From positions 1 through 64,000 of the IMG/VR virus record IMGVR_UViG_3300032073_000008: 64,000 bases of DNA; one strand, 5' to 3'. Within the stretch, counting starts at the first letter, position 1. Each line of letters opens with the position of its first letter. The stretch comes from a virus. The notes beneath the pieces are model-generated. The model saw nothing but the letters and a program-made list of their open reading frames with translations. It ran no database searches and had not been told where the DNA came from. Shown piece by piece: positions 15,316 through 43,588 of this stretch. The position numbers were made by a program, and so were the translations under genes.

Positions 15316-16410
15316 TTATGCAAAAAAACTTTCTAACGAACTTTTCTTTTCAGACTGCCATCCAACCGACTTCAGAATATACTTTAGTGGTTCAAGGAAT
15401 GCTTTCTGAAACTGCAATTCGCGGTCTATGTAGGAGTTTAACTCAAATTCTTTGGGCAGTGTTGTCATAACACTGATGATATTTTGCCTTGTTGGATTAG
15501 GCAATTTCAAATAACAAAACTTAATCTTCTCACCATCTTTGATGGACTCATATTTTTTGGTGAGCTTCATATCACGAAGCATATGATTATATACCAACCC
15601 ACCACGAACATGAATTGGTGTTCCTTTAGGAATTGTCAGCTCATCACCCAATACTGTATACTTATTCAAATCAGAAATTGAACGAGGAAAGGCAATGTCC
15701 TCGAAGCTGAAAGTATCAAACTTTTCTCTGAATTCAGAAATATAACTCTGCACTTCATCTTCACCTTTTGTCATAATAATCTTGATGGCTTCTTTCAAAG
15801 CATCACGACAGACTGCTGGTGTTGATGACTTAACAGTCTCAATACCCATCATCTTCAATTGCGGTTCAGCATAACGCACACCCTCATTATCATACACATT
15901 CATCATGTAGCGTTTCTTAGCAGTCCAGATAGCTTTATCTGCAATCGCTTCACGCTTCATAAACATCTTTTGGGAATATGCGTTTGTTAGGTGTGCCAGC
16001 TCTTCATAACTTTTATCAATAAAAGGTTCCAACTTCTCAGCTGCAACTTTGTCCAAGAAATTGACGACTTTGACAGCATCACTTCCCTCTTCAAAGCATT
16101 TGCGTACAAGTTTGTCGAGATTGACATAAATTGAATCTGTGTCCGACGCAATAACATAATCAACTTCGTCTGTATCCAAGATCTTGTTGAGATATTCATT
16201 TACTCTCCTTTCAATCCATCTAATTGCTAACTGACCAGACAATGTAATTGCCTCTGCCTTTCGTACATCAAAGAATCGAAAGTATTTATTACCGACTGCA
16301 CCATAAGCTGAGTTGAGCTGAACCTTTTTTGCAAGTTGAAGATTCTTGTACTTGCTTATATCTTTAACAAGTTGCTTCTTCCGTTCAAGAAGTTCAGCTC
16401 TTTCAGTCAT
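15316..16410 (-). CDS. gp43B: Family B DNA polymerase, C-terminal subunit (split gp43)
   Basis: KVQLNSAYG (motif B), SDTDS (motif C), KKRY, GIETVKSSTP, C-terminal clamp-binding SLESFF. Confidence 0.93.
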   Translation of the reverse strand: MTERAELLERKKQLVKDISKYKNLQLAKKVQLNSAYGAVGNKYFRFFDVRKAEAITLSGQLAIRWIERRVNEYLNKILDTDEVDYVIASDTDSIYVNLDKLVRKCFEEGSDAVKVVNFLDKVAAEKLEPFIDKSYEELAHLTNAYSQKMFMKREAIADKAIWTAKKRYMMNVYDNEGVRYAEPQLKMMGIETVKSSTPAVCRDALKEAIKIIMTKGEDEVQSYISEFREKFDTFSFEDIAFPRSISDLNKYTVLGDELTIPKGTPIHVRGGLVYNHMLRDMKLTKKYESIKDGEKIKFCYLKLPNPTRQNIISVMTTLPKEFELNSYIDRELQFQKAFLEPLKYILKSVGWQSEKKSSLESFFA

Positions 16411-24212: not shown

Positions 24213-24587
24213 CTATAAGAATTTTTCTAAATCTGGTTTCCAATAATTTGGACCTTTAAGAATCTTGCCATCTTCTCGATAAATTGGTTTGCCATCTTCA
24301 CCGAGTTTACTCATATTAGATTCGTGGACTTCATCAAATGTTGCATCTAGATCGATACCATATGCAGCACCAGCACCATAAACAACATATAATAAATCAG
24401 TAAGAGCGTCTGCGATTTCTGCTAAATCTTTTTTCTCTACAGCTTCACATAATTCTTCTAATTCTTCAGATATTAATTCAATACGCAAGCTCGCAACATC
24501 ATCATCTACAAACTCAGCATCATCTTTGACCGCTTGTCCAAATGTTTGCATGAACTCACGAACTTTGTTATAATTAGTATTTGACAT
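24213..24587 (-). CDS. MazG-like / PRA-PH-like NTP pyrophosphohydrolase
   Basis: EELEEL, ADALTDLLYV.YG, EVHESNMSK, DGKILKGPNY. Confidence 0.85.
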   Translation of the reverse strand: MSNTNYNKVREFMQTFGQAVKDDAEFVDDDVASLRIELISEELEELCEAVEKKDLAEIADALTDLLYVVYGAGAAYGIDLDATFDEVHESNMSKLGEDGKPIYREDGKILKGPNYWKPDLEKFL

Positions 24588-24588
24588 A

Positions 24589-24978
24589 TTATTGTTTTTT
24601 ACCAATGTTGTATTTTGTTTCAAGATTCCAGTCAGCTTTGTCCTTGTACGGCAAAACTTTAATTTGGTTCAAAGGAGCAATTAGCTCTTTTGTTTTATCA
24701 TCATCCACCAACTTTATCAATCCCCACTCAGCCAACAAGTTCGCAATAGTATTGCGTCTTGCAACATCTTCATCACCAAAATTACTAGGCTTACCATCAA
24801 GGGCAAACAACTCTTTAAAGTGGACAATGTAATACTTACCTTGCTTATGCAAGATATGGCACGATTGATATAGGGTTTTGTTTTTATGAGATGCAACACC
24901 GATTCGTGTTAGTGTTTCTCGAATCTTTAGAAAATCATCATCATTCTTTAGTATAACTTCCACTAGACTATCCAGCAT
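24589..24978 (-). CDS. regA: Translational repressor RegA
   Basis: DDFLKIRETLTRIGVAS, LYQSCHILHKQGKYYIVHFKELFALDG. Confidence 0.95.
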   Translation of the reverse strand: MLDSLVEVILKNDDDFLKIRETLTRIGVASHKNKTLYQSCHILHKQGKYYIVHFKELFALDGKPSNFGDEDVARRNTIANLLAEWGLIKLVDDDKTKELIAPLNQIKVLPYKDKADWNLETKYNIGKKQ

Positions 24979-28875: not shown

Positions 28876-29433
28876 TTATACAATCGCATAGATATCTGTA
28901 CTTTCTACCCAGCAAGTATATCCATATTTTTTTAATCGTTCCAGAAGAAGATTACAATCTACATGGGAATGTTCTATCTTAATTAATGTTGGTTTTATAC
29001 CAAAGCTAAACCCCTCAAAGACATTTGCTTCATGCCCTTCAACATCAATCTTTAGAAAGTCTATATGGTCAATATTATTCTTACTGATGTAAGAGTCTAA
29101 TGTCATAGCAGGAACTGTTATCTTTGCATGGTTAAAGCGTATATTATCTGGAATATCCAGAAGTTTTTCTCCCATATGTTCATCAGTGTCAACATGTCCG
29201 ATACCTCTGACCCAGCTATCAGTTGCTATGCTCTGTCTGAATGGGACATAACCATCTATATCTGAAATGGCAAGATTATCAACTTGGATATCATATGGCT
29301 TTGCTTGTTCAGACATAGTTTCAGCATATCGTGGATCAGCTTCAACCATGTAGCCAGACCAACCAGATTTTGCTAGAGGAAGGCATGTTCCAAAATCGCA
29401 CACGCCTACCTCTAGAAAGACTTTATTAGGCAT
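28876..29433 (-). CDS. FkbM-family SAM methyltransferase
   Basis: FLEVG, VEA.P, TLD...IDFLKIDVEGHE; start placed at MPNK. Confidence 0.85.
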   Translation of the reverse strand: MPNKVFLEVGVCDFGTCLPLAKSGWSGYMVEADPRYAETMSEQAKPYDIQVDNLAISDIDGYVPFRQSIATDSWVRGIGHVDTDEHMGEKLLDIPDNIRFNHAKITVPAMTLDSYISKNNIDHIDFLKIDVEGHEANVFEGFSFGIKPTLIKIEHSHVDCNLLLERLKKYGYTCWVESTDIYAIV

Positions 29434-30088
29434 ACTTGCTCCCAGCTTCAGTTGCAACCCAATACTCAACAACAGATCCTTTGAAGTTTGAGATACCTTT
29501 AGATGATACATTCACCTTATAATCATCAGCCATGAACTTGAGATTTTCAGTCTTAAAGATAAACTCAAACTCAGCTTCAGTGACACCAACACTCAATCCA
29601 AACTCATTAGATGTTGGATTCTTGGTATCAGTAGCAACCAAAGAGATAGATCCATCAACACCACGAACAACAACTTCTGGTAATGATAATTGATTTGCAG
29701 CATTGACCACTTTCTTATAGTCGGCTTCACTCATATCAAAAGTTACTTCTGGATCAGGCAATTCAAGATCCTTTTCTGGTGGTGATACAACCATAGATGG
29801 ATCAGTGTAAGTGTAACGCGAAGTGCTGTTACCACCATTCTCTTTGATAGTCATAGATTTGTCACCAAAGTCTATGTCTGCATCATCAAACAAGCTAGTG
29901 AGACCAATAAACTGATTCAACTCATAGATCGCAAAGTCTTGAGGAAACGACTCATTCACAACAGCAGAAGCAAGAATGTTCTTCTGTGGTGACACTGTAC
30001 GCAAAACATTACCTGCTTTGAATACAAGAGACGGATTAATGGTGGAAAAGTTTTTCAAAACTTCAAAAGTGTTATCGCTTAATTTCAT
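29426..30088 (-). CDS. gp45: Sliding clamp
   Basis: MKLS..T..VLKNFSTIN.S, FAIYEL..F, YWVA.E. Confidence 0.93.
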   Translation of the reverse strand: MKLSDNTFEVLKNFSTINPSLVFKAGNVLRTVSPQKNILASAVVNESFPQDFAIYELNQFIGLTSLFDDADIDFGDKSMTIKENGGNSTSRYTYTDPSMVVSPPEKDLELPDPEVTFDMSEADYKKVVNAANQLSLPEVVVRGVDGSISLVATDTKNPTSNEFGLSVGVTEAEFEFIFKTENLKFMADDYKVNVSSKGISNFKGSVVEYWVATEAGSKYA

Positions 30089-35892: not shown

Positions 35893-36441
35893 CTACATAA
35901 GATTTTCAATAAAGCCAATAATTTTTTTCGTATCTTCAGGGACATTGTGTTCAAAAGCATGGACACATCCAGCTTCGCCCATCAATATTTTTTCCCCAAA
36001 CATATCTTCAATGTTAGCAACTTTCGTTACTCGCCCATTGATAAATGTTTCTGATTGATCAGAACCTCTATCAGCATAACGCTGTTCACGAACAGCATCA
36101 TCTGTTTTTAATACTATAATTGTTAGATCATGCCCTGCTCTCTTCACAGCCTCAAAGAACTTAGAAGAAGTCAATCTGTCACCCTCGAACACTACGACAG
36201 GTGATGGATTGTTTTCTAGGTATTCAATTGCCATTGGCTGTACTGCCATTGACAGTTTATCAGTACCAGCAAACACTTCTCCTTCATCATATTTACCAAA
36301 CAAACGGATATCTCCAGAAACATAACCATCAAGCAACTTAACTGGAGTATCTTTAGTCCACTCTCGTTTTGACATCCACTCACGCATAAGTGTTGTTTTT
36401 CCAGTTCCTGGAATTCCAATAATACCAATCACTTTACTCAT
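35893..36441 (-). CDS. P-loop nucleotide kinase (candidate 5-hmU kinase)
   Basis: GIPGTGKTT, FAGTDKLSMAVQP, FEGDRL, R...RG..Q...F..GR.TK; ATGA-coupled to the TET/JBP gene. Confidence 0.7.
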   Translation of the reverse strand: MSKVIGIIGIPGTGKTTLMREWMSKREWTKDTPVKLLDGYVSGDIRLFGKYDEGEVFAGTDKLSMAVQPMAIEYLENNPSPVVVFEGDRLTSSKFFEAVKRAGHDLTIIVLKTDDAVREQRYADRGSDQSETFINGRVTKVANIEDMFGEKILMGEAGCVHAFEHNVPEDTKKIIGFIENLM

Positions 36442-37826
36442 GAAAAGAATCCTTCTAATGATGACTTTGTCACAACAGCTTCTGGATGATATTGCGATAA
36501 CATTCCTTCACCGCCTTTCTGTTTCAGATAATCATACCACTCATCTTCAGCCCACATATTTGGCGAAACACCATTCCAAAATTCTTTCCACAACTTGTGG
36601 TTCTTATTGAGTCTGCGATCATCAACATATTGTCTACGCAGTTTTTCATATTCCCAAGAACCAACCTCAAGCATTTTTTCACGGAAGTAGCATACAAGAG
36701 ATATGCGTTCCATTTCTTCAATAGTGGTTCCAGCAGGTGGTTTCAGTTCAGTGTTACCATGAATGCCACCATGATTATTGATCAACAAAAGATCTCCTGG
36801 ACGGATATTGATACCTACACGAAACTCTGGAAGGACAAGATAACCACCTTCCCAATTCTTTTCTTTAGCAACAACAGTAAGGTTTGAAAATCCTTCATTC
36901 AAATCACCAGCATCTCTGTGAGCTGCAGTTCTGAAGTTTTTATTTACAGTAATCGTAGTGAACGGTGTATCTTCACCAGCAACACGAAAGCGTGGATCTA
37001 GCTTGCTTGCAGCTTCGTTTTGAATACCATAACGAATAGGTAAATGCTCCTTAAATTTGTCAGCTAATTGACGCATGAAAGGATAGCACTTCTCATAGAC
37101 AGGATAGTTGTTCTCTGTATACGCAGTTGCTCGACCGTATGGAATACGAGGATATCGATCAAAGAATCCAGCAATACCTGACAACACCATGTTAGCATAT
37201 GTTGTCTCAGAGATATAGTTCTTTTGAGTTGCCTTTGCGTCTTTCTGAGCATCCTCTGCTGACATACCTTGCCATTCAGCAACCTTGTCATTGAAGAATG
37301 ATTCGTAATTATAACCACTATCAGTGATCTTAGATCTGATCCAAACTATACCACGAGATTCACCTGCTGTAATTGAAGCATGTTTTGCTCTGATTCTTTC
37401 TACTGGATCAGTGTCATCTTCAAACAGAGAAACTTCACGCTCAGCAAAGTGCTTCATAATATCAAGCTGTTCTTCAGTTACCCAATCACGACCGCCTTGC
37501 TTTGCTCCTTTTGGACCAGCAGCAAGACCACGATTTTGTGTAGGTAATGCAGCACCTAATAATCCTTCATAAGCACCGTGCTGTTGTTCTTCAGTAAAAA
37601 CATTTTTGCGAAACTTAAAGATAATGTTATCTTCATTATTCTCACCACCAAACCCAGCAGGAGCATAGAAGTCAGTATCTTCTTCACAAATAAAATCCCA
37701 GTCAGTATCTTCCATATATTGACCGAGTTTGTGTTCACAATCATCCCAAAACTTGGCTGTAATGATTCTGACATTGTTTACATTATCTACCTTAACATCA
37801 TACTTTTCGTTTATCACACCAATCAT
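36438..37826 (-). CDS. TET/JBP-family 2OG-Fe(II) 5-methylpyrimidine dioxygenase
   Basis: FTTITVNKNFRTAAHRDAGD (HxD), GGYLVLPE, PGDLLL, HGNT, RISLVCYFRE; C-terminal SSLEGFF resembles a clamp-binding motif. Confidence 0.82.
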   Translation of the reverse strand: MIGVINEKYDVKVDNVNNVRIITAKFWDDCEHKLGQYMEDTDWDFICEEDTDFYAPAGFGGENNEDNIIFKFRKNVFTEEQQHGAYEGLLGAALPTQNRGLAAGPKGAKQGGRDWVTEEQLDIMKHFAEREVSLFEDDTDPVERIRAKHASITAGESRGIVWIRSKITDSGYNYESFFNDKVAEWQGMSAEDAQKDAKATQKNYISETTYANMVLSGIAGFFDRYPRIPYGRATAYTENNYPVYEKCYPFMRQLADKFKEHLPIRYGIQNEAASKLDPRFRVAGEDTPFTTITVNKNFRTAAHRDAGDLNEGFSNLTVVAKEKNWEGGYLVLPEFRVGINIRPGDLLLINNHGGIHGNTELKPPAGTTIEEMERISLVCYFREKMLEVGSWEYEKLRRQYVDDRRLNKNHKLWKEFWNGVSPNMWAEDEWYDYLKQKGGEGMLSQYHPEAVVTKSSLEGFFS

Positions 37827-38833
37827 ATCATAAATCTCTCTATTCCAACATTACTCATTTCATTTGTAAAAGTATTCATATGGTCTATCTTCCCAGTGTC
37901 TAGGAATATCTCCATTTTACTCTTACTTATCGAATTAGTCAAGTATTCATTTCTCAATGTCTCTTTTCTAGCATCCCACATGGGTGTCCAGTCAATACCA
38001 TCCCATCCATCTCTCTCCACTTGCTTTATTTCTTCAGCTTGTCTGTCAATATAATAACCAAGATAACGACCTCTACTCTTGCGAAACAGTTTCTTAAATG
38101 AACACAGTGCTGTTTCCATAGCAAAAAAGTCTGCTTTGCTCTCAGCATTTGGGTGTGTGCGTTTTACATCTTCGAGTATTTTCTTTCCTTCTCCTTCCAT
38201 CCATTGTATTTGATCATCTTCGAGCTTTTTATTCACCCAATCATCTTTACCTAAAGCATAACAAAGACCATTCCGATGAGATCGAGATCCAGAATAGTCA
38301 TGTAACCATAGACTTGGAACATCAACATTGAGACCAGCACACTGCTTTAGAGTTTGGATATAAAACCAAGATGTGTATCTTCCGAACTTGTGTAATGAAG
38401 TTACAGAATCCCAAACTTTTTGGAAGTTTTGATATTTGTCGCCACGACATAACTCTTCAAATGCATCTTCTTGTTTCCTACCACCAACCCATTCTTTATA
38501 GGAAACAAATTGATCAGCAAGATGACCTTTATTCCATTTTGTATCTGTTTGATATCTGAGACGCGAATAGTTTTCATTGTTCCATTCACGCAAACGATCA
38601 ACACCAACCAACTCCATATCAGGGAACTCATTCCAGATAAGGTATGCTGTTGGGAAGTTGTATGTTGTTCCATATAACCAACAGAGCCATAACTTCTGTT
38701 CTGTGTTATATTCAAACCGATCAAAGAAGTAATTTGTGAGATACAATGCTGAGTCACAATCTTCTATCTCAAGACTCCACTTAAACCAGTTGACAAATGC
38801 TTGTCTACGATGTTCACTTAATCTATAATCCAC
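37823..38833 (-). CDS. Amino acid:DNA transferase (aGPT-PPlase2/AADT-like, DNA-glycosylase HhH fold)
   Basis: WLCWLYG.TY, FGRY.SWFY.Q.L, GS.S.RNGL, ETALCSFKK, RYLGYY.DR. Confidence 0.7.
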   Translation of the reverse strand: MDYRLSEHRRQAFVNWFKWSLEIEDCDSALYLTNYFFDRFEYNTEQKLWLCWLYGTTYNFPTAYLIWNEFPDMELVGVDRLREWNNENYSRLRYQTDTKWNKGHLADQFVSYKEWVGGRKQEDAFEELCRGDKYQNFQKVWDSVTSLHKFGRYTSWFYIQTLKQCAGLNVDVPSLWLHDYSGSRSHRNGLCYALGKDDWVNKKLEDDQIQWMEGEGKKILEDVKRTHPNAESKADFFAMETALCSFKKLFRKSRGRYLGYYIDRQAEEIKQVERDGWDGIDWTPMWDARKETLRNEYLTNSISKSKMEIFLDTGKIDHMNTFTNEMSNVGIERFMI

Positions 38834-39489
38834 TAAAAGAATTCCTCTAGAGTGTTTGGCTCATCACCTATTAATTTATCACGCATCCAAAACTCTCCTA
38901 CAGAAGAAATAGCTTCTTCTACAGTAGCAGTCTTTTTCTTACCAAAGCCATGAGACTCAAGCGATTCATCAAACAATTGTTTGATCACCTTTGGATCTTT
39001 AGGCAAAGCCAGATGCGGGACATTAATTGCTGTTGCCCTAAATGTGCACTGCTCCCTGATAGAAGGAAACAGTGGTTGATCAGAACGCAACGACCCAGTT
39101 GGATCAACAGCCCAAAATATCAAACCATTTCTTTTATGCCAAGTTATAGAAGATGGAGTGCAAGATATTTTCAAACGACTCATGCCATTATTAAAAGCAT
39201 CACTCATTACTCTTTCCCAGATAGCTGTAGCATATCCCTTTCCTTCATGACCTTGCCTAGTTACAATCTCATATAGATTAATATATCTCGATCTTTGACT
39301 ATAAGTAGCAAACACAAATGCAACCATTTCGCCATCAACCTCTAAGGCAAATGGCTTATTATCTTTTTCATAGTTTTTAAAACGAAACCACAAACTGTGT
39401 GATGAATTGAGGAACTTTGTATTTTTTCCTTCAGGGGAGTTCTCAATGACTTTCTCAATCATCTCTTGTGAACATCTTACTATGCGCAT
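38833..39489 (-). CDS. GNAT-family acetyltransferase
   Basis: LYEIVTRQGHEGKGYA acetyl-CoA-binding motif, W...G; C-terminal TLEEFF. Confidence 0.72.
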   Translation of the reverse strand: MRIVRCSQEMIEKVIENSPEGKNTKFLNSSHSLWFRFKNYEKDNKPFALEVDGEMVAFVFATYSQRSRYINLYEIVTRQGHEGKGYATAIWERVMSDAFNNGMSRLKISCTPSSITWHKRNGLIFWAVDPTGSLRSDQPLFPSIREQCTFRATAINVPHLALPKDPKVIKQLFDESLESHGFGKKKTATVEEAISSVGEFWMRDKLIGDEPNTLEEFF

Positions 39490-40172
39490 TGTAAGTCTCT
39501 CACTAATGCACCACCACGCAATGGAGAAGATTTCTCTAGCTTTCCATTGTATGTGTATGTTACATACATGTCTGTTCTTTGTTGATTTGTAATTGCACTT
39601 CTTTTTAGAATATCTTTTGTTGATGCGAATACAATACCATTATTTCGCTCACTATACCATAGTGGTCTTGCTTCATTTCTAAATCCAGTTAGACTCTTAT
39701 CTTTTTTGATACGACAGACAGCCATACTTGATGGGTAAAAATCATTCAATGGATCATTACCAGCCTCATATGATTTCAATATCAATTCACTGTCATTAGC
39801 TGTTTCAGTGTTATATTTCCACTTCTCTTTATCTTCTTGTGATATAACACCATTGTGAACAATACTTTGATCACCATTAGAGAAAGGTTGATTGTATCGA
39901 AGATCAGATGTTGAATAGCGAATATGACCAATAAGGTAGATACCACCATCCTCATTTATCATACTCTGAATTGGATATTTTGCGAGGAACTCATCACAAG
40001 GGATGCCCTCTTTTATCGTATATATCTTAGAATCTTTGACATATGATACACCAGTCGCATGTTTCCCTCTTATCATAGATTCGCGGAAAATACGCTCTAC
40101 CAGTTTAACATTCTCAATACTACCACGACTGACAGAGGATCTCTCTAACCAAACGCCTATCACACCACACAT
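39480..40172 (-). CDS. Class II (Ntn) glutamine amidotransferase domain protein
   Basis: MCGVIG (Cys2 nucleophile), RG.HATG, GHIRYST, NQP, VHNG, DSE, RPL, FAS. Confidence 0.88.
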   Translation of the reverse strand: MCGVIGVWLERSSVSRGSIENVKLVERIFRESMIRGKHATGVSYVKDSKIYTIKEGIPCDEFLAKYPIQSMINEDGGIYLIGHIRYSTSDLRYNQPFSNGDQSIVHNGVISQEDKEKWKYNTETANDSELILKSYEAGNDPLNDFYPSSMAVCRIKKDKSLTGFRNEARPLWYSERNNGIVFASTKDILKRSAITNQQRTDMYVTYTYNGKLEKSSPLRGGALVRDLQCA

Positions 40173-40200
40173 AATATACCCTTTATGTAAATAAACAGAT

Positions 40201-40229
40201 ATTATACATTATCAAATGTAATTTGTCAA
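40201..40229 (-). promoter_or_regulatory. Consensus sigma70 promoter for the modification operon
   Basis: Perfect TTGACA-N17-TATAAT, 28 nt upstream of the GATase ATG. Confidence 0.8.
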
Positions 40230-43559: not shown

Positions 43560-43588
43560 ATTATACTACAATTCAATACAAGTGTCAA
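43560..43588 (-). promoter_or_regulatory. Consensus sigma70 promoter for gp47-gp46-def
   Basis: TTGACA-N17-TATAAT. Confidence 0.8.

Follow-up and report, generated by a model that had tools for sequence, protein, structure and literature searches.

A conserved DNA-hypermodification operon of a T4-like phage with a glutaminase predicted to pair with its DNA-base transferase

Background

How might a phage operon that combines a TET/JBP dioxygenase with a glutamine amidotransferase modify DNA, and what could the amidotransferase contribute? This question is raised by five genes in the 64,000-nucleotide stretch analysed here (positions 1 to 64,000 of IMG/VR virus record IMGVR_UViG_3300032073_000008; hereafter the window), encoding a class II glutamine amidotransferase (GATase), a GNAT-fold acyltransferase, an amino acid:DNA transferase (AADT), a TET/JBP dioxygenase of the 5mYOX type (TET) and a P-loop kinase. 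Phage thymidine hypermodification clusters yield new DNA chemistry as well as enzymes for labelling DNA and for epigenetic sequencing. Metavirome contigs without a dUMP hydroxymethylase gene, in which TET_JBP lies beside a 5-hydroxymethyldeoxyuridine (5-hmdU) DNA kinase and an aGPT-Pplase2/AADT protein, have been described by Lee et al. 2022 (PMC8989533). There, TET was read as the in situ maker of 5-hydroxymethyluracil (5-hmU; Fig. 2, sequences 22-25), and the function of the co-occurring 'amidoligase and glutaminotransferase' genes was left unexplained. Since 2021, no role has been assigned to the GATases that recur in such clusters. With the same Pfam models as those used here, O'Toole et al. 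2026 (PMC13229309) found a ParB-dependent subclass of 5mYOX enzymes 'consistently linked' to GATases, P-loop kinases and AADTs. A literature search returned no paper that gives the GATase of such cassettes a role or determines their product.

Results and discussion

Proposed pathway

The interpretation favoured here, with moderate confidence, is that the operon is expressed early and hypermodifies thymine in the phage's own DNA after replication. In a first step, TET would hydroxylate thymine in DNA to 5-hmU. Secondly, the P-loop kinase would phosphorylate the hydroxymethyl group to give 5-phosphomethyluracil, as shown for its homologues. Thirdly, Cys244 of AADT would add to C6, with expulsion of the phosphate and exposure of an exocyclic methylene, a mechanism published for PaMx11 gp46 and M6 gp51. 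Fourthly, AADT would take no free amino acid and would be the synthase subunit of a glutamine amidotransferase made of two subunits, in which the docked class II GATase delivers ammonia to the methylene to yield 5-aminomethyldeoxyuridine (5-aminomethyl-dU). Lastly, the GNAT, a predicted N-acylase of 5-aminomethyl-dU in DNA, would acylate this amine, with 5-acetamidomethyl-dU as the product if acetyl-CoA, the simplest choice, is the donor. This is the base proposed for PaMx11, which would be formed here without glycine or a lyase dependent on flavin adenine dinucleotide (FAD). Characterised homologues underlie the first three steps; the last two, and with them the product that we infer, most likely an acylated aminomethyluracil in phage DNA, rest on genomics and a predicted protein complex.

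If the GATase feeds AADT, the donor range of AADTs widens from amino acids and diamines to ammonia. This would open a route to 5-aminomethyl-dU, and so to a primary-amine handle on DNA, with two enzymes, and would explain why all variable partners encoded in such loci are amine acylators.

Predicted pairing of the glutamine amidotransferase with the AADT

Co-occurrence, natural fusions and a predicted complex of the GATase and AADT point to ammonia as the nucleophile. The GATase begins with M1-C2, and R85, N107-G108 and D127 are invariant among 12 sequences, completing the class II glutaminase set. Its C-terminal DLQ is invariant too and is retained even in ParB-linked loci outside the T4-like phages. 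In the PDB, the GATase profile matched the glutaminase domain of PurF best (E 4.4e-8). GlmS was also found and an EgtC-like protein was not; a gamma-glutamyl hydrolase of the EgtC type is a less likely reading. PurF lets ammonia from glutamine take the place of a (pyro)phosphate that leaves from carbon. The window glutaminase differs from that of PurF in being a separate protein of 230 aa, and its proposed acceptor would be a helix-hairpin-helix DNA-base transferase acting on a polymer.

A search seeded with the GATase retrieved 80 loci, 38 of which had at least 5 kb on either side of the GATase gene. AADT was present in all 38 well-covered loci, at a median gap of 625 bp, and the kinase in 35 of them. 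The 5-hmU source was TET in 33 and a ThyA-like enzyme instead in four. All but one (37/38) contained either this GNAT (19/38) or an amidoligase with or without a second GNAT (18/38); the downstream enzymes of the variants, be it a GNAT or an amidoligase plus second GNAT, are all amine acylators. Some minimal loci (L058, L115 and L124) encode just GATase, AADT and kinase together with TET or a ThyA-like enzyme. The constant core consists of a 5-hmU source, the kinase, AADT and the GATase, and the amine-acylating enzyme is the variable part. Furthermore, GATase and AADT occur as single-chain fusions in four protein clusters (P0124-P0127, 555-588 aa; 11 members in P0125), in which an N-terminal MC-GATase is joined to a full AADT.

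Prediction of the AADT-GATase complex gave a score of 0.77, the best of three controls scoring 0.00. Among solved complexes, 58 of 80 came up to the mark applied to this score, and among mismatched pairs two of 110; these counts are only rough, since own alignments were used. The runs shared at least 90% of contacts, with a partner pLDDT of at least 89. On the GATase side, the predicted interface comprises residues 1, 33-38, 86, 88, 109, 112 and 227-228, including the N-terminus, the invariant RGKH (33-38), Y86 and T88 beside the Arg that binds glutamine, and the C-terminal LQ, likewise invariant. AADT contributes clade-invariant patches (38-45, 68-75 and 278-284). A sequence-profile search of the PDB found no AADT relative, and the score is therefore unlikely to reflect a solved complex already known to the predictor. 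An earlier, sequence-only reading of the window had proposed the GATase as a possible ammonia source for the transferase, a proposal that gains substance from these results.

That reading had also taken the transferase for an AADT, in agreement with its match to the Pfam ADDT family and its retention of the catalytic Glu, Thr and Cys of PaMx11 gp46. Indeed, MAFFT places E240, T241 and C244 opposite Glu243, Thr244 and Cys247 of gp46; in gp46, the first two are metal ligands and the third is the nucleophile (PMC11472151). C244 is the sole invariant cysteine in the AADT alignment including gp46, and both cysteines lie at approximately position 222-223 of the Pfam ADDT model. Identity with homologues from ViI-like phages is about 29%. 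GATases of cultured phages (LUZ24 gp19 and Vibrio phage 1.262.O) were considered as members of the same system and rejected: they are 480-510 aa long, show about 26% identity and lie in amidoligase-rich clusters, that of LUZ24 also containing RimK and gamma-glutamyl cyclotransferase genes, and belong to a different system.

TET dioxygenase, kinase and substrate base

H303-x-D305, H356 and R374 of TET are invariant in an alignment of 23 sequences. An AlphaFold2 (AF2) model (pLDDT 78) resembles human TET2, CcTet and NgTET1 (Foldseek E about 1e-8; VIA Z 18.3, 15.9 and 15.7, respectively; root-mean-square deviation of 3.7 over 255 aligned residues for the best match). Single-sequence phmmer searches with TET or the GATase against the PDB gave no match; a profile search, Foldseek and VIA were used instead. 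Profile and structure searches of each product had been suggested as a check by the sequence-only reading; TET has both the HxD...H...R set and the TET fold. The kinase, which had been cast as the hydroxymethyl-activating enzyme, proved homologous to the proven 5-hmdU DNA kinase gp49 of PaMx11 (30% identity, E 2e-5).

The source of the window is an IMG/VR contig of 110,317 bp, about 61% complete, and the searches of the whole contig cover that part of the genome. No match to the C5-methyltransferase family (PF00145) was found anywhere in it, which extends the sequence-only reading's remark that none is adjacent to the operon. Matches to ThyA-family proteins (PF00303) and ThyX (PF02511) were likewise lacking in the contig. 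Together, these absences favour thymine as the substrate of TET. Phage 5mYOX enzymes oxidize thymine in DNA in vivo as well as in vitro (O'Toole et al. 2026, PMC13229309), and by analogy with these relatives the window TET would hydroxylate thymine in DNA to 5-hmU.

Approximately 83 aa of TET extend past C379, its last conserved cysteine. Compared with a 324-aa ParB-linked relative, the window TET contains an insert of about 100 aa directly after the PTQNRG motif and about 50 more C-terminal residues, ending in a polymerase-like tail. The position of the insert is the site of the 'variable insertion' that governs ParB dependence in O'Toole et al. (PMC13229309). The idea that the first 235 aa form a fused ParB-like or DNA-binding domain was rejected: alignment of the model to NgTET1 and TET2 starts at about residue 9-15, and the comparison with the 324-aa relative shows an internal insert instead. 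An Atlas look-up of residues 1-235 gave TET-like leads only, all below 0.9.

The closest TETs of cultured phages are those of DLP6, C48C1 and Cr30 (44-51% identity). In Caulobacter phage Cr30 (L001, 5992-11155), TET (annotated as 'SNF2 DNA repair protein'), a 409-aa ADDT protein and a weak TAGT-like gene lie within 5 kb, and in Stenotrophomonas phage DLP6 TET adjoins gp46/47 and deformylase genes. Both phages are possible laboratory models for this TET family.

Polymerase-like tails and a possible link to the sliding clamp

TET and the GNAT end in the same motif as the DNA polymerase of the phage itself, with a near-match in AADT (KKSSLESFFA for the polymerase, KSSLEGFFS for TET, NTLEEFF for the GNAT and GIERFMI for AADT), so that these enzymes are probably held on the gp45 clamp. 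Among the 413 open reading frames (ORFs) in the contig that are 50 aa or longer, only three end in [STGA]L[DE]x[FLM][FYMLI], namely those for the DNA polymerase, TET and the GNAT. The motif is kept on TET, the GNAT and AADT in T4-like relatives (on most AADTs, in the form GLExFM), on the TET-associated glycosyltransferase (TAGT) in 6/6 sister loci and on the kinase in one lineage; the GATase, the amidoligase and the window kinase are without it. In five related genomes, the polymerase terminates in SLESFFG, SLEDFFG, SLEDFFN, TLEDFFV or TLDDYF. In two ParB-linked relatives (L114 and L115) the tail is absent, and the GNAT alignment ends exactly at the tail start. A polymerase-like tail on the GNAT is as expected for an enzyme working on DNA. 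In loci L104 and L105, TET, AADT and the kinase end in L(A/E/D)DFF(N/S), and the polymerase likewise in LEDFFN. A MazG/PRA-PH-like pyrophosphohydrolase (window 24213-24623, minus strand) ends in KPDLEKFL, a looser polymerase-type tail.

In T4, gp45 is bound by the C-termini of gp43, gp33 and gp55, which are hydrophobic-acidic and can replace one another (PMC2988020), and T4 alpha-glucosyltransferase co-purifies with gp45 according to a passage in PMC13216743 that cites Sommer 2004. The tails of TET and the GNAT, and the near-match of AADT, are of the same type as those of these gp45 clients. Compared with the T4 clients, it is here a whole hypermodification set (TET, AADT and GNAT, and TAGT in the sister phages) that carries the polymerase-type tail. 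From this short motif, TET, AADT and the GNAT are probably tethered to the gp45 sliding clamp, behind the fork. The clamp may replace ParB in this lineage as activator or DNA-engagement factor. The tails thereby offer a testable answer to two questions of O'Toole et al., namely how duplex DNA is engaged without ParB and why modification is post-replicative; if they bind the clamp, modification would be coupled to the fork through it.

The combined proposal, in which AADT is the synthase half of a heteromeric amidotransferase acting on a base of duplex DNA and the tailed enzymes also ride gp45 in place of a ParB clamp, is put forward tentatively, as possible rather than probable. If true, a nucleic-acid polymer would for the first time be known as the substrate of an amidotransferase, and ammonia as the donor of an AADT.

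Weighing of alternative readings

Several observations weigh against the proposed pathway or its clamp component. None of the characterised AADTs is known to use ammonia, their donors being glycine, serine, putrescine and 1,3-diaminopropane (PMC8989533, PMC13458397). The link between AADT and PaMx11 gp46 is based on a MAFFT alignment and on the Pfam model that both match, and hhalign found no relation between the two. The donor pocket favours a donor other than glycine, since Tyr153 and Phe157 of AADT stand where gp46 has Trp146 and Lys150, which hold glycine there; this is a weak point, however, as the alignment has 21% identity. AADT modelled alone with AF2 from a 14-row alignment had a pLDDT of 58, and Foldseek gave only meaningless helical matches, which have no bearing on the fold. 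No significant similarity was found between the GNAT and PaMx11 gp48 (E 0.45). A search for ParB (PF02195) was negative in the 110-kb contig and found ParB beside TET in L114 and L115; the remainder of the genome could hold a ParB as well as a C5-methyltransferase gene. In addition, GATase homologues are fused to an amidoligase (P0121 and P0123) or a GNAT (P0122), with DLQ at the junction, so that ammonia could serve another step in at least some variants. A multi-enzyme assembly, or a second use of ammonia in the amidoligase variants, is possible. The P0121-P0123 sequences are metagenome proteins, representing either real fusions or stop codons lost on short contigs.

These fusions, the occurrence of the amidoligase in 18/38 loci and the known AADT donors agree with another reading, in which AADT installs a free amino acid or polyamine and the GATase and GNAT tailor the appendage, for instance through amidation of its carboxylate or acetylation of a distal amine, to a base other than acetamidomethyluracil; the amidoligase partners would fit a glutamine-dependent amidation of carboxylates. 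This reading deserves attention but is considered rather unlikely, as the GATase accompanies AADT in every well-covered locus, whereas the amidoligase and this GNAT are each found in about half of them, and the minimal loci are without a tailoring partner. Moreover, four fusion clusters join the GATase to AADT itself, the active-site face of the glutaminase is set against AADT in the predicted complex, the window encodes no ATP-dependent ligase for carboxylate activation, and the residues binding glycine in gp46 are not conserved in AADT.

Two further readings concern the target of the cassette. TET could act on 5-methylcytosine (5mC), or the cassette could modify cytosine, as do the phage TETs of clade A/B in Burke et al. 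2021, with kinase and transferase acting on 5-hydroxymethylcytosine (5hmC). For some contigs, Burke et al. raised the possibility that a P-loop kinase phosphorylates the 5hmC made by TET (PMC8256090), and O'Toole et al. (PMC13229309) report the enzymes that they studied to be active on 5mC too. However, this reading is judged improbable: a C5-methyltransferase was not found in 110 kb, an absence that is not final for an incomplete contig, the same GATase-AADT-kinase core occurs with ThyA-like enzymes (probably dUMP hydroxymethylases) in other phages, and the AADT and kinase homologues have been characterised on 5-hmdU. That the five genes are ordinary auxiliary metabolic genes, brought together by chance and without action on DNA, is hardly credible. 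The GATase and GNAT folds are generic and the JGI label for the GATase family is PurF-like, but gene order is conserved over many loci at 41-96% protein identity, the reading frames overlap, three of the families are DNA-modification-specific Pfams, and both polymerase-like tails and natural GATase-AADT fusions are present.

Comparison with known systems

The operon is a genuine, conserved DNA-hypermodification cassette of a type already described from metaviromes. The mechanism of the sequence-only reading is the best-supported one, although its novelty was overstated: of the 'new route' that it claimed, the ammonia step stands, whereas both TET initiation and the linkage of GATase, kinase and AADT had been published (PMC8989533; PMC13229309). 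What looks new here is the pairing of the glutaminase with AADT, with ammonia as donor, and the presence of clamp-type tails in a ParB-less lineage. Compared with the clusters of Lee et al. 2022, a role for the GATase, not proposed there, is proposed here.

The ParB-dependent clade C1 of O'Toole et al. ('clade E' in bioRxiv 10.1101/2025.08.14.668559) shares with the pathway proposed here the logic of thymine oxidation in DNA followed by hypermodification. The window TET also shares with this subclass the linkage to GATase, kinase and AADT and the C-terminal extension beyond the last conserved cysteine. In contrast, ParB was not found here, TET is 462 aa long and contains the insert, polymerase-type tails are present and the phage is a T4-like myovirus. 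Loci of the ParB type occur among the relatives of the window operon: L114 and L115 encode ParB_N, a 324-aa TET, GATase, AADT and kinase, and L114 the GNAT as well. The experiments of O'Toole et al. covered the oxygenase and ParB alone, without GATase, AADT or GNAT steps. Members of the ParB-independent clade C2 are about 290-300 aa long and usually lie beside glycosyltransferase genes; compared with these, the window TET is longer, and its sister orthologues are paired with TAGT.

Phage PaMx11 (Lee et al. 2022, PMC8989533; structures 8Z2M and 8Z2N, PMC11472151) likewise uses a kinase, an AADT and a GNAT. In its pathway, a 5-aminomethyl-dU intermediate is N-acetylated, as proposed here, and the AADT Glu, Thr and Cys are common to both. 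However, 5-hmdU is made by a dUMP hydroxymethylase (a ThyA homologue) in PaMx11 and would be made by TET in the window operon. Similarly, the PaMx11 amine arises by glycine transfer followed by the FAD-dependent oxidase gp47, whereas the window operon has a GATase and no FAD enzyme. A single-sequence hidden Markov model of PaMx11 gp47 gave no reported match in the related loci searched, and all five operon genes are otherwise assigned. The PaMx11 GNAT (gp48) is not detectably related to the window GNAT, nor are Trp146 and Lys150 of gp46 kept in the window AADT.

Conservation and module exchange

TET is 60-90% identical in 44 IMG/VR loci, about half of which contain the same GATase-GNAT-AADT-TET-kinase cassette, with partner proteins of 41-96% identity. 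The co-occurrence of these genes elsewhere in T4-like phages, a check suggested by the sequence-only reading, was thereby recovered. A variant (L027, L036-L039, L060, L062, L067, L080-L086 and L099-L101) encodes GATase, an amidoligase (weak PF12224), a different GNAT of 178 aa (Acetyltransf_10), AADT, TET and kinase, as well as a 433-439-aa protein without Pfam family; it probably makes a more elaborate N-acyl product.

In sister phages with the same gp47-gp46-deformylase...Hsp20 locus, a TET of 60-67% identity is followed by a TAGT glycosyltransferase and sugar-nucleotide enzymes, without AADT, kinase or GATase. This pairing of TET with TAGT (PF20691) occurs in L011, L013-L017, L019-L023, L041 and L045 and suggests a glycosylated 5-hmU resembling base J. 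In L025, TET is accompanied by sugar-nucleotide genes only (UDP-glucose dehydrogenase, epimerase and UDP-galactopyranose mutase). The swap of an 'amino' for a glycosyltransferase module around a constant TET represents hypermodification evolving through module exchange. One phage (L104/L105; 247-kb contig, 97% complete) encodes TET, TAGT, GATase, amidoligase, AADT and kinase together.

Locus, promoter and host contig

The features of the locus are listed in Table 1. The five minus-strand ORFs of the operon (window 40172-35893) overlap successively by 10, 1, 4 and 4 nt behind a sigma-70-type promoter matching the consensus at all 12 positions, as the sequence-only reading had described. Its assignments of the five products were upheld too, all Pfam matches exceeding the curated cut-offs. 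The AADT gene starts with GTG, where its relatives have ATG at the same position.

Table 1. Features of the operon and of the replication genes discussed, in window coordinates
Feature	Position	Strand	Evidence
Sigma-70-type promoter TTGACA-17-TATAAT (12/12)	40201..40229	-	sequence match
Class II (Ntn) glutamine amidotransferase, stand-alone, 230 aa	39480..40172	-	GATase_6 1e-9, GATase_7 2.6e-6
GNAT-fold acyltransferase, 218 aa	38833..39489	-	Acetyltransf_1 2.5e-8; EGxGYA motif; ends NTLEEFF
AADT (amino acid:DNA transferase), 336 aa	37823..38833	-	Pfam ADDT (PF18724) 1.2e-23; ends GIERFMI
TET/JBP (5mYOX) dioxygenase, 462 aa	36438..37826	-	Tet_JBP 2.4e-23; ends SSLEGFFS
P-loop kinase, 182 aa	35893..36441	-	Ploopntkinase3 (PF18751) 5.7e-18; Walker A GIPGTGKT
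Second perfect TTGACA-17-TATAAT promoter, just 5' of gp47	43560-43588	-	sequence match
gp45 sliding clamp	29426..30088	-	gp45-slide_C 2.9e-17
C-terminal piece of split family-B DNA polymerase (gp43)	15316..16410	-	ends KKSSLESFFA

The -35 hexamer of the operon promoter sits within the final codons of the deformylase gene. It is one of just two such perfect matches in 10 kb, the second lying upstream of gp47; by a rough estimate, about 0.01 are expected by chance per 20 kb of strand. A terminator scan 3' of the kinase gene gave nothing convincing. By Pfam, the operon is flanked upstream by genes for the gp47/gp46 recombination nuclease and a peptide deformylase, and downstream by an Hsp20 gene.

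Identical DNA was found again in marine metagenomes and viromes of several studies, including independent marine DNA runs, and megablast matched the cassette to no cultured phage. Short contigs identical to parts of TET and the kinase gene (window 36619-37619 and 35946-36176) were present in two RNA-type marine libraries. These are a weak hint of expression at sea, since carried-over DNA may be their source and a contig is no proof of transcription.

Besides the gp45 clamp and a split family-B polymerase, the contig encodes a clamp loader and UvsX, which together identify it as that of a T4-like myovirus. The polymerase is split into a part with the exonuclease and N-terminal polymerase regions (18133-16679), a 90-aa ORF (16682-16410) and the C-terminal part (16410-15316); in four related genomes, this region is a single open frame of 814-846 aa.

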